From positions 1,472,001 through 1,536,000 of the forward strand of contig OY762654.1 of NCBI GenBank assembly GCA_963666205.1: 64,000 bases of DNA, written 5' to 3'. The translations under genes and the position numbers were made by a program. Below the pieces are notes generated by a model. That model was not told the origin of the DNA, ran no database searches, and saw only the letters and a program-made list of their open reading frames with translations. Below are positions 5,528 to 8,716 of this stretch, in pieces. The DNA comes from Synergistales bacterium. Its GTDB lineage: Bacteria > Synergistota > Synergistia > Synergistales > JAFGMB01. Within the stretch, counting starts at the first letter, position 1; each line of letters opens with the position of its first letter.

Positions 5528-5983
5528 GAGGAATTCTTTCTATACCAGATTAAAGGATGGTAAAATCATTACGAATTACCAGGAGCTGGATAAAAACTGA
5601 AATGTCTATCCTGCCCGGAGGATCCAGAAAACAGAAAATTCCGAAGGACCAAAAAAAATCTTTTTCCACCATTTGCTGTTGCAGCTTCGTATTTCTAAAA
5701 GGACAGGGCCAATACGTTGAGACAGAAGCCGGAACATGATTCACACTATATACCAGATAATGCCGGTATGGGTTACACATTAATGGCCAATCTTTTTCCA
5801 GGAGAAATCTTTGGGAAGATAGCCATGCTGGAGGGCGCTATACCGGGCTGCCCTTCGAAAAGAAATCCTTCCGATATACAGAGGGTTTCAAATGTTGCAT
5901 GCCATCTCTGCATATTGTATAATCCGGTCGATTGCAGTTAATATCTGATGAAACAATTTTTCTTGACTAGGAGGGAATTTCTT

Positions 5984-6151
5984 ATGGCAGCAAAGATCGA
6001 CAAAGATACATGCGTAGGTTGCGAAACCTGTGTTGGAACCTGTCCTGTAGAGGCTATTTCCATGGTTGATGGCAAAGCTGAGGTTAACGACAGCTGCGTC
6101 GAATGCGGCGCCTGTGTTTCCGTTTGCCCCGTAGAGGCTATTTCTGTATAG
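5984..6151 (+). CDS. 2x[4Fe-4S] ferredoxin (55 aa)
   Basis: Two CxxCxxCxxxCP motifs; AGGAGG SD before ATG 5984. Confidence 0.95.
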   Translation: MAAKIDKDTCVGCETCVGTCPVEAISMVDGKAEVNDSCVECGACVSVCPVEAISV

Positions 6152-6172
6152 CATAGGCTCTAAGCAAGTTAG

Positions 6173-6216
6173 ATATAAGAAAAGGACTGCCCCCAAAGGC
6201 AGTCCTTTTCTTATAT
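6173..6216 (+). terminator. Intrinsic terminator after ferredoxin
   Basis: AGAAAAGGACTGCC...GGCAGTCCTTTTCT stem-loop. Confidence 0.85.
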
Positions 6217-6234
6217 AGAGGTCAGAAAGAGATT

Positions 6235-6498
6235 AAAAAGGGAATCCCTAAAGGGGGGCGGGATTCCCTTGGATTCGAGGTCGGAAAAGGTTGAATTATC
6301 CTTTTTATGGAACCTGCCAGAAGATATTTTTAAAAGACTTTTGCGTGCCCGGAGGTGGGGGTATCTACTCCGGAAAAGTTTTATAAAAATAGCCCTGTAA
6401 AACAAGGTCCATTCTATTAGAGGGGGGGAACCACAGTAATAGAAAATAGCAACATTTTCTCGACACTCTAGCCTGAACAAGCAGGCAAAACGAATAAT
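6235..6498 (-). ncRNA. Candidate small RNA 2 (about 265 nt)
   Basis: Own promoter TTGACA-N17-TAAAAT (6533-6505) and terminator AAGGGAATCCC/GGGATTCCCTT+U tract (6270-6235); no SD-led ORF; shares motifs with RNA 1. Confidence 0.55.
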
Positions 6499-6603
6499 GT
6501 AGGGATTTTATACGTGGATGTGTATTTTGTCAAGTTTAGCTTTTGCATATTTATTAGTTTATTTTGATACTACCAGACTTATCGTTTTATACCGTGGAAC
6601 AGT

Positions 6604-6902
6604 AAAAAAGGCCCAGCCTATGAACTGGGCCTTTTCTGATAAGAAGTAGAGGTATGATCGCGATAATGGCGTTATCGGCAAAATTAACGGGTCAAGGAGA
6701 GAGGTTATTACCCTTTTTTTAACAAAGGTAAAGGGGGAATTTGCGTGCTCCAGGAGGCAGATCCGGATAACCTTCGGGGAAAAGGGCCGAATCCTTGGCG
6801 GTAATAACCTCTTGAAATAAACCTTGAAACCCAAATAACGTAAGGGGGAACCAAACGTTCAAAGAGTATGCTTCATATATTTTCAAAGCTCGTTCTTTGT
6901 TG
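6604..6902 (-). ncRNA. Candidate small RNA 1 (about 300 nt)
   Basis: Promoter TTGACA-N17-TAAAGT (6937-6909); terminator AGGCCCAG/CTGGGCCT+U6 (6634-6604); long internal stem AGAGGTTATTACC/GGTAATAACCTCT. Confidence 0.6.
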
Positions 6903-7227
6903 GCGTATACTTTATACTGCATATATAATTTTGTCAACCGTATTTTTGGCTTTTTTGTAAAGATAAAGTAAAATTAGGGTTTTAAAGAATAGTTAATGTA
7001 TGCTGAATAAACCCCTAAATTGAACACTCCGTTACGAAATTAACGCCTTTTAAAATGAAGATCTCCAGCCTTTGAAATGAAAGCAATAACCGGAAACTAC
7101 CTTTGACGGGTATACAACGAGAAATCGGGGATATTGTCAAAAACCTGAAACTTCAGGTACTTCACGGAGGGGAAGGCTTCGACAATATCCCCGGAGATAG
7201 GGGGTAAAGAACTCTTTTCTCCCTTCC

Positions 7228-7335
7228 CTATCGAAGACAGGGAAGATATGGGGGGGTATTGGGGAAAGAAAGTTCCCTTGCTCCTGTTTCTTTCTTTTTT
7301 CCTGCCTTCTGTTTTTCATCTTTGATCTGTGCCAT
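7228..7335 (-). CDS. Small hypothetical protein (35 aa, MAQIKDEKQKAGKKKETGARELSFPNTPPYLPCLR)
   Basis: GGGAGGT SD 8 nt before ATG; below the ORF-track cutoff; lies downstream of the attenuator. Confidence 0.45.
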   Translation of the reverse strand: MAQIKDEKQKAGKKKETGARELSFPNTPPYLPCLR

Positions 7336-7375
7336 TTCTATAGACCTCCCTGATATTTTTCGTTTATATCTGCTT

Positions 7376-7543
7376 TCAGTACTTCCACCATCGGGGAATG
7401 GAAATACTCTTTACCTCTTCCTTTCTTTGAAAGGGTCCAGGCTTGTTCTCGGGAAGAAAGGGCGAATATCTGAACCCCGAAAGAGGTGTATCCATCACCT
7501 GCTCCTCCGGTATGCTTCGCCAGAAAAGGCTTTCTTCATCCAT
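7376..7543 (-). CDS. Small hypothetical protein (55 aa, MDEESLFWRS...PRWWKY)
   Basis: AGGAGTGAGG SD; first ORF after the attenuator terminator. Confidence 0.5.
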   Translation of the reverse strand: MDEESLFWRSIPEEQVMDTPLSGFRYSPFLPENKPGPFQRKEEVKSISIPRWWKY

Positions 7544-7571
7544 ATCCCTCACTCCTTTCCTCAAAGACCAT

Positions 7572-7610
7572 AAAAAAAACCGGGCTCCCTTAAAGTTCGG
7601 GAACCCGGCC
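7572..7610 (-). terminator. Attenuator terminator hairpin
   Basis: CCGGGTTCCC-loop-GGGAGCCCGG followed by U8. Confidence 0.85.
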
Positions 7611-7633
7611 TGAGATCTACTGGTCAACGCCTG

Positions 7634-7720
7634 TCAGACGCCGACCACCTCAGGTGAGTCCCCGCCGCTAAACCAGTAATAAAAGTAATAGCTGTTACTG
7701 TAAGAACTATTCTTTTTCAC
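7634..7720 (-). CDS. Attenuator leader peptide MKKNSSYSNSYYFYYWFSGGDSPEVVGV
   Basis: GTG start with GAGGTG SD; run of 7 aromatic codons; upstream promoter; downstream antiterminator/terminator. Confidence 0.8.
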   Translation of the reverse strand: MKKNSSYSNSYYFYYWFSGGDSPEVVGV

Positions 7721-7775
7721 AGAGACACACCTCGCCTTCATCAATTCGTTTAAATTTTCAGAATTATTGCCGAAT

Positions 7776-7804
7776 ACTTTATACCCCTTATCCCCATTTG
7801 TCAA
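7776..7804 (-). promoter_or_regulatory. Sigma70-type promoter of the attenuated transcript
   Basis: TTGACA-N17-TAAAGT. Confidence 0.7.
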
Positions 7805-7975
7805 TACGCAACCTGAGAAAAAAAGAAAGAATATTTTCTCAGGTTGACAACCATACAATTCAAAAATTTCCCTGGGTGTTTTGAAATGGATTATACTAAA
7901 GAAAGTCAGGCAAAATTCCTGTAAAACAGATTATCAGCTAATTGTCCTGGGCATATGGACGGGGGGCATTAAACT

Positions 7976-8716
7976 TTGAAAAAACCAGAAGATTTCAGAA
8001 TCCTTCCAGCAGGAGAATCCTGCATCTTTGTAGATTTCGGATCCATGGTAAACCTTGAGATCAACGGCAGGGTCCAGGCATTAAAGAAAAAGGTTGAAAC
8101 AGAACAGCTTACCGGGATAAGGGAAGTTGTTCCAACCTACCGTTCACTGGCCATATATTTCGATCCTGTATTGCTGGACCTGGAAAGATTCATAAAAAGG
8201 CTCAAAGATATAATTCCCGGTACTGCATCCCTCCAGAATGAAACAGCAAGAACGGTGGTCATTCCCGTATGTTATGGCGGGGAATTCGGCCCGGACCTGG
8301 AAAGAGTGGCATCCCTCAAGGGACTGACCTGTGAGGAGGTTATTCGGAGGCACTCTTCAAGGGACTACTACTGCTACATGTTGGGATTTACCCCGGGTTT
8401 TCCATATCTTGGAGGAATGGATGAATCCATATCCGCACCGCGTCTGGAAAGCCCCAGGGAGGTAATACCAGCCGGCAGCGTCGGCATCGCAGGCACACAG
8501 ACCGGCATCTACCCCATAAGCAGCCCAGGGGGCTGGCAGCTTATCGGCCGGACACCCCTGACGCTCTTTGATCCACACAGAGAACCTCCCATACTCCTCG
8601 AATCGGGTATCTGGATCCGCTTTCGTCCTGTTTCAGAGGAAACATACCGAAAGATCTCGGAAAAGGCCGATTCCGGTAACGGGGATATGGAGCCACTGGA
8701 AAGAGGGCGATCCTGA
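7976..8716 (+). CDS. pxpB: 5-oxoprolinase subunit B (KipI-like)
   Basis: VVPTYRSL, IPVCYGGEFGPDL, GFTPGFPYLGG, SPGGWQLIGRT. Confidence 0.9.
   Translation: MKKPEDFRILPAGESCIFVDFGSMVNLEINGRVQALKKKVETEQLTGIREVVPTYRSLAIYFDPVLLDLERFIKRLKDIIPGTASLQNETARTVVIPVCYGGEFGPDLERVASLKGLTCEEVIRRHSSRDYYCYMLGFTPGFPYLGGMDESISAPRLESPREVIPAGSVGIAGTQTGIYPISSPGGWQLIGRTPLTLFDPHREPPILLESGIWIRFRPVSEETYRKISEKADSGNGDMEPLERGRS

Follow-up and report, generated by a model that had tools for sequence, protein, structure and literature searches.

Two separate small-RNA genes lie on the minus strand of the window, the 64,000-nt stretch of DNA analysed here (G000:C1:1472001-1536000), which comes from a complete Synergistales genome of 2.95 Mb. 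Both genes are real. The first, unit 1, specifies a conserved structured non-coding RNA of about 250-300 nt that represents an undescribed family, and this family is confined to one family of Synergistales. The second, unit 2, appears from the genomes compared to be a genus-specific sequence in a slot held elsewhere by another C-rich RNA. As far as sequence comparison reaches, the two units share a design and no detectable ancestry, with only their promoters alike. Both lie inside a 1.8-kb stretch without long open reading frames (ORFs), between a ferredoxin gene and a PxpB-like gene:

5948-6151, plus strand, 2x[4Fe-4S] ferredoxin gene, the flank of the RNA cluster that is convergent with the units
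6498-6235, minus strand, unit 2 RNA of about 263 nt, from the promoter and terminator reading, same genus only
6902-6600, minus strand, unit 1 RNA of about 300 nt, from the promoter and terminator reading and orthologues
7976-8716, plus strand, carboxyltransferase C/D (PxpB-like) gene, the opposite flank

On the ferredoxin side, an inverted repeat at 6173-6216, with perfect 19-bp arms, a 6-nt loop and flanking T/A runs, is likely a bidirectional terminator that serves both the ferredoxin gene and the RNA cluster on the minus strand.

Each unit has a promoter with a 17-nt spacer and an intrinsic terminator, just as the earlier note on this DNA had read them on the minus strand; a third promoter of related type, absent from that note, belongs to a further transcript that we call unit 0:

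6937-6909, minus strand, unit 1 promoter, sigma70-like, TTGACA-17-TAAAGT, 10 of 12 consensus matches
6533-6505, minus strand, unit 2 promoter, sigma70-like, TTGACA-17-TAAAAT, 11 of 12 consensus matches
7804-7776, minus strand, unit 0 promoter, the third of related type, driving a conserved leader RNA and small ORFs
6600-6636, minus strand, unit 1 intrinsic terminator, stem 6606-6616/6625-6635 and then a T run
6235-6270, minus strand, unit 2 intrinsic terminator with a C-rich loop, stem 6238-6248/6260-6270 and then a T run

The putative start of unit 1 (about 6902) was placed from the position of the -10 element and its end at the T run past the terminator, and unit 2 would start at about 6498. 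Neither terminator was listed in a minus-strand scan for consensus terminators, both calls being based on inverted repeats, direct reading of the T runs and predicted folds. The unit 1 promoter is conserved across genera in position and sequence. Over its -10 region it carries GTATAAAGTA, a 10-mer common to the unit 1 and unit 0 promoters, which occurs twice in the whole 2.95-Mb genome, only in these two promoters and each time 17 nt past TTGACAAA; TATAAAGTA is retained in eight of the ten unit 0 and unit 1 promoters of five genomes.

When 40 relatives were searched at the DNA level, the whole region was recovered from a same-genus genome at 89-93% identity, three same-family genomes gave fragments of it, and the orthologous unit 1 loci have a common promoter word, closing helix and C-rich blocks. 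The covariance-model search of related genomes that the earlier note had proposed was run with unit 1 orthologues (model R1, built from five unit 1 cores). It matched all five family genomes, with one copy in each, and none of the 146 other genomes of the order sample; in the phylum sample, the three family genomes drawn (3/3) and G000 were matched, and none of the 147 others. Scanned with an exact pattern, 185,579 species genomes yielded four relatives and two chance matches, while a pattern scan of metagenomes returned six true loci and one chance match. Two of those six scored the same as the relative G002, and the four further distinct metagenome sequences together with the five family genomes make nine distinct unit 1 sequences. 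Three of the 13 scan loci (L042, L045 and L054) were rejected as chance pattern matches in coding sequence with no other motifs and no R1 match; L042 and L045 come from other phyla and are not members of the unit 1 family.

The elements of unit 1 on which the comparison of these nine sequences turns are the following:

6696-6862, minus strand, conserved core of unit 1, matched by R1 at 141.5 bits, with 9 distinct members
6800-6812, minus strand, 5' arm of the closing helix, AGAGGUUAUUACC, in a 13-nt perfect inverted repeat
6700-6712, minus strand, 3' arm of the closing helix, GGUAAUAACCUCU, in the same 13-nt perfect inverted repeat
6844-6853, minus strand, UGGUUCCCCC, hairpin 1 loop, C-rich in six of nine sequences
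6776-6780, minus strand, UCCCC, loop of the inner hairpin, invariant in 9/9
6751-6759, minus strand, UGCCUCCUG, containing the anti-Shine-Dalgarno core CCUCC, loop of a 3-bp hairpin (helix 5), invariant in 9/9
6740-6748, minus strand, GCACGCAAA, the second word shared with unit 2, not conserved (one of nine unit 1 sequences)
6730-6739, minus strand, UUCCCCCUUU, unpaired within the closing helix, with CCCC and UU invariant
6646-6661, minus strand, 3' box GCGAUCAUACCUCUAC, between the hairpin and the terminator, resembling the 16S 3' tail

The predicted unit 1 transcript folds better than its dinucleotide shuffles (z -4.55; 0/100), and in the consensus fold of the nine sequences a 13-bp closing helix encloses three small hairpins, while a further 5' hairpin stands apart from them. 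In the nine-sequence alignment, which was fitted to the covariance model and so favours structure, 87.6% of the pair cells are standard, a share that falls to 39.1-54.5% once the partners are slid; changes on both sides occur in 12 of 32 pairs, compared with 1-3 after sliding. The covariation value observed was reached by none of 500 shuffles on four of five measures; the fifth, which counts further pair types, did not rise above the shuffles (463/500). This covariation is located in hairpin 1 and in the inner hairpin (helix 3), the latter having four of its six pairs changed on both sides. The closing helix is 95.6% paired across the nine sequences, with two pairs changed on both sides and ten of 13 pairs that never vary; because these ten are invariant, conservation of the helix could serve something besides pairing.

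The invariant unpaired letters of unit 1 are UCCCC, UGCCUCCUG and CCCC..UU (9/9 each), all of which complement Shine-Dalgarno (SD) sequences. Other C-rich elements vary more: the C-rich loop of hairpin 1 is missing in three of nine members, one clade having UUAUUU instead, and the 3' box pattern GCGAUCAUACCUC(U/C)AC is retained in clades a, b and c and weak in clade d. Judged by generic criteria for sRNA genes, unit 1 has a promoter, an intrinsic terminator, no conserved ORF, sequence conservation and a covarying structure. With nine distinct sequences, a fold supported by covariation and invariant anti-SD-like loops, it is ready for curation as a new RNA family.

These features suggest how the RNA may act. 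The 3' end of 16S rRNA in this organism reads GGAUCACCUCCUUUCU, and its tail CACCUCCUUUCU recognises G-rich SD sequences. The 13-bp helix closes a domain displaying UCCCC, UGCCUCCUG and CCCCCUUU in loops or unpaired stretches, and most unit 1 members also have a UUCCCCC loop on a 5' hairpin and, on the 3' side, a CCUC box. All these C-rich elements complement the G-rich SD sequences recognised by the 16S tail. In the mechanism we propose, unit 1 would pair in trans with the ribosome-binding sites of several mRNAs, without Hfq, such pairing blocking translation initiation; unit 2 probably acts in the same way. Hfq-independent trans-pairing to SD regions, of the RoxS/LhrC kind, is the reading favoured here, because the invariant loops complement SD sites and a precedent exists in Firmicutes, where RoxS and LhrC exemplify a well-documented type of sRNA that masks SD regions with several C-rich sites. 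We hold it tentatively, at a little short of an even chance, and both the trans-acting mode and the targets are what we infer. Complementarity by itself is weak evidence, since a C-rich motif can pair with nearly every SD. The suggestion of the earlier note that these are non-coding units with C-rich loop motifs able to pair with SD sequences gains support from the analysis, unit 1 being backed by conservation and covariation in nine sequences.

The genome itself was also searched for partners. No hfq gene was found in it. A BLAST search for genome sites complementary to the RNAs gave chance-level matches only, and the best-placed candidate, a 16-nt perfect match ending at an ATG, was discarded as it is part of a longer frame that is already open further upstream. 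A count of genome sites complementary to the invariant motif gave ordinary SD sites, 46 in all, 10 of them beside ORF starts (the count was one letter off and has no control). In G002, the start region of a small ORF can be matched by eye over about 13 bp with the CCCCC motif of that genome's own unit 1; the same pairing is not evident in G000, G003 or G004, and we therefore make no claim for it.

Next in rank after SD trans-pairing comes a decoy function, which we consider unlikely, in which the RNAs titrate a C-rich or anti-SD-like binder (a 30S-associated factor, Rho, a KH-type protein or CsrA) and pair with no mRNA. Several repeated motifs set out in loops on one large scaffold, the arrangement seen in sponge RNAs, would suit such a role, as would the nearly invariant helix arms and motifs, the resemblance of the 3' box to the 16S tail and the presence of a csrA gene in the genome (76.3 bits). 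However, the GGA motifs that form the CsrA determinant vary among clades (unit 1 of G000 has three GGA sites, none of them invariant), no protein that might be the partner has a link to the locus, and the motif type fits known base-pairing sRNAs.

Unit 2 repeats this design on another sequence, and its predicted fold contains three hairpins of interest:

6471-6486, minus strand, 5' hairpin GCCUG...CAGGC, with a compensatory change in the relative (pair 24/37, CG to UA)
6412-6443, minus strand, hairpin with loop CUGUGGUUCCCCCCCUC, from the predicted fold and the two-genome comparison
6349-6373, minus strand, hairpin CCGGAG...CUCCGG with a CCCCC loop, inside a long AU-rich stem

The predicted transcript folds better than dinucleotide shuffles (z -4.73; 0/200). 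Outside G000 it turned up in the same-genus genome and in RNA-library contigs from a close relative and nowhere else, a conservation depth of two genomes; those contigs carry the same two changes in the 5' hairpin (places 6472 and 6485). Between the two genus members, one pair is changed on both sides, six are changed on one side and still paired, and none of 67 predicted pairs is broken, in a structure predicted from the same two sequences on which it was scored. Against the minimum-free-energy fold of G000 itself, seven pairs are broken, where random placement breaks 11.5 on average (seven or fewer in 138/5000), which gives modest support to conservation of the predicted fold. In sister genera, the slot between unit 1 and the ferredoxin gene contains a different conserved C-rich RNA, in which one hairpin has a poly-C loop, another element is also C-rich and a long-range helix carries a GAUGCCUC box on its 3' arm. 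A covariance model built from six of these second-slot RNAs (R2) has no match in G000 or G001, neither at unit 2 nor elsewhere. Unit 2 resembles unit 1 in its poly-C hairpin loop, its CCCCC hairpin within a long stem and its CCUC box before the terminator. The second slot, in which the sequence changes between genera and the design is kept, is a small case study of how quickly sRNAs turn over.

The earlier note had gone further and taken the two units for homologous-looking siblings. The shared words to which it pointed are present and in the same order in both units (TGGTTCCCCC at 6853 and 6433, GCACGCAAA at 6748 and 6348, minus strand), but two collinear words of at least 9 nt turn up in 165 of 2000 dinucleotide shuffles, so the likeness does not exceed chance. 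Nor is GCACGCAAA a family trait of unit 1, since the same-genus relative differs from it at two letters and the other clades are without the word. R1 gave no match to unit 2 at E<=10 with default filters, and with the filters off it gave 4.1 bits (E 0.68), a result that speaks against a sibling sRNA family. Alignment of the transcript bodies scores no higher than that of shuffles (z -0.78), whole-genome BLAST with either unit as query did not find the other, and R2 detects neither window unit; a global MAFFT alignment of both units came out of register and is uninformative on homology. What true paralogy would explain is that the units are adjacent and on the same strand, that their 56-nt promoter regions are significantly alike (z 5.06; 1/1000 shuffles), and that they share two words in order, an overall design and a CCUC box near each 3' end. 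On balance, paralogues that diverged everywhere save at functional motifs seem quite unlikely.

Six metatranscriptome runs hold parts of the stretch, and four of them were examined for contigs. In RNA libraries of one study, contigs of a relative 90-99% identical to the window covered both units in two of two runs, at word depths of 36-141. Unit 2 has contigs at 6317-6668 and 6334-6516 (depth 87-141), the unit 1 core at 6712-6863 (36-53), with a further one at 6834-6963 plus the small-ORF region, and the flanking ferredoxin and PxpB-like genes at 2-20, all of these depths indicating presence only, as they cannot rank genes. Metatranscriptome contigs give no strand or ends, and DNA carry-over is possible. 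The two runs of a second study (X3 and X4) yielded no contig on either unit, which is no evidence of silence. Taken together, the contigs are a hint that the two units are transcribed and no proof of two discrete RNAs.

The same contigs bear on whether the units are independent at all. One runs over the unit 1 promoter and links 7127-7477 with 6963-6834, and that at 6317-6668 crosses the unit 1 terminator into unit 2. Moreover, the terminator of unit 1 is degenerate in the same-genus relative, where its 5' arm is missing, and in G002 a symporter and a dehydrogenase gene that G000 lacks stand between unit 0 and unit 1. All this could be expected if the units were processed or read-through 3' parts of an upstream operon, or leaders orphaned by gene loss. 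We nevertheless regard such an origin as improbable: the unit 1 promoter keeps its position and sequence across genera, unit 1 has the same place with or without the two genes (G002 compared with G000 and G003), and the gene that follows is the convergent ferredoxin gene, which leaves nothing downstream to lead into.

Upstream of unit 1, the minus strand carries the unit 0 leader RNA (7565-7804), 73-76% conserved in all five family genomes, and two small ORFs:

7376-7543, minus strand, small ORF1 of 55 aa, with a good SD, no Pfam/NCBIfam match and a conserved GF.Y...P.WW
7228-7335, minus strand, small ORF2 of 35 aa, with a good SD, no Pfam/NCBIfam match and the ending EN.P..LPCL(R/C)
L029:1423-1636, L030:49-262, L031:2086-2305 and L032:247-460, unit 0 orthologues in the loci of relatives

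Unit 0 contains an ORF of 28-29 codons with an aromatic run (SYYFYYWF), in frame across genera, and an invariant stretch of about 26 letters starting CGGGGACUCACCU, part of which pairs with the SD and start of that ORF; an intrinsic terminator comes after. It has no Rfam match at E<=10, and its appearance is that of an attenuator or riboswitch-like leader not described before, which may sense aromatic amino acids. ORF1 and ORF2 look conserved in other genera and are covered by RNA-library contigs from two studies. The stretch between the small ORFs and unit 1 (window 7200-6960) is the place where G002 has genes for a sodium:solute symporter and an Ldh_2-family dehydrogenase (L030:842-3400), the latter with sulfolactate dehydrogenase as its best NCBIfam match, below the cut-off. 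As G000 and G003 are without these two genes, the leader-controlled operon is shortened there. About 129-163 nt of the window (6964-7092) are missing or replaced in the same-genus genome and in a sediment relative, where 32 other letters separate 6963 from 7127. Beside this variable stretch, at 7126-7193, lies an inverted repeat whose 16-bp arms are 94% complementary and enclose a 36-nt loop.

A bolder extension of SD pairing, which we put forward as a long shot, is that unit 1 and the interchangeable second RNA are multi-site mimics of the 16S tail, acting as global 'Shine-Dalgarno sponges' in an Hfq-less phylum and co-induced with the leader-controlled operon via the genome-unique promoter word. 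If so, they would regulate bulk translation initiation rather than a few targets.

That the units are small-protein genes is very improbable. Some members do have open stretches of 40-55 codons; however, none of the 12 sense ORFs of at least 20 aa in five unit 1 orthologues has an SD-like word upstream, only one of them begins with ATG, the indels between clades are not multiples of three, and no reading frame stays open across clades in the unit 1 core, where one clade has at least two stops in every frame. The absence of an SD-led ORF asserted in the earlier note is thus borne out, and no conserved small ORF that could explain the motifs was found in the unit 1 orthologues.

Comparison with Rfam 15 at gathering scores returned nothing at the units or in eight orthologous loci, the sole match of the window being a tRNA elsewhere, which agrees with the earlier failure to assign the RNAs to a known family. 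At E<=10, the region gave noise only (miRNA or terminator look-alikes) besides a rimP leader on the plus strand, which was rejected; its score of 31.9 bits (cut-off 47; E 0.0099) is carried by the two terminator-like hairpins. The earlier note also named divergent 6S paralogues. As RNAs that bind RNA polymerase, such paralogues would suit the size of the units (260-300 nt) and the long irregular stem of their single-sequence folds, but the idea is hardly credible: RF00013 has no match at E<=10 in 5900-8000 and reaches its gathering score nowhere in the window, several hairpins in a closed domain make up the conserved fold in place of one long hairpin with a central bubble, and a better, full-length candidate stands elsewhere (G000:C1:505656-505832, 36.5 bits, below the cut-off of 46.4). 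That candidate, about 970 kb away, is the only match of the 6S model in the genome and probably the real, divergent 6S RNA of the organism.

Hardly any regulatory RNAs are known from Synergistota. The table of a 2022 survey gives one annotated sRNA for the phylum (PMC9029176), and our literature search found nothing relevant on small or noncoding RNA of Synergistetes/Synergistota or on sRNA of Acetomicrobium. With unit 1, post-transcriptional control in these anaerobes, which ferment amino acids, becomes accessible to experiment for the first time.

Among known systems, 6S RNA (RF00013) is comparable in length and likewise rich in secondary structure, but its model does not match, and the unit 1 fold lacks the single long hairpin with a large central bubble. 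The CsrB/RsmZ sponges resemble unit 1 in presenting repeated short motifs in loops on a scaffold, and a csrA gene is at hand, but the repeated motif of unit 1 is C-rich and not GGA. RoxS contains four regions rich in C that pair with G-rich target sequences (PMC5419742). The units are about three times larger than RoxS/RsaE (RF01820) and of another architecture, and RsaE has no match in the region at E<=10 (its best in the genome, at another locus, is 23.7 bits against a cut-off of 79); what unit 1 has in common with it is C-rich regions that are unpaired and conserved, here UCCCC, UGCCUCCUG and CCCC..UU in 9/9 sequences. In LhrC of Listeria monocytogenes, two or three UCCC motifs in loops or a single-stranded stretch pair with AG-rich SD regions, lhrC1-4 stand in tandem, and target regulation is Hfq-independent (PMC8079631). 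The RNAs of the LhrC family (LhrC1-5, Rli22 and Rli33-1) are 105-121 nt long and clearly homologous, whereas the window units are about 260-300 nt and not detectably so, belong to another phylum, are matched by no Rfam family and, in unit 1, have their motifs enclosed by a 13-bp helix. The likeness lies in the several C/U-rich loop motifs and in the neighbouring genes.
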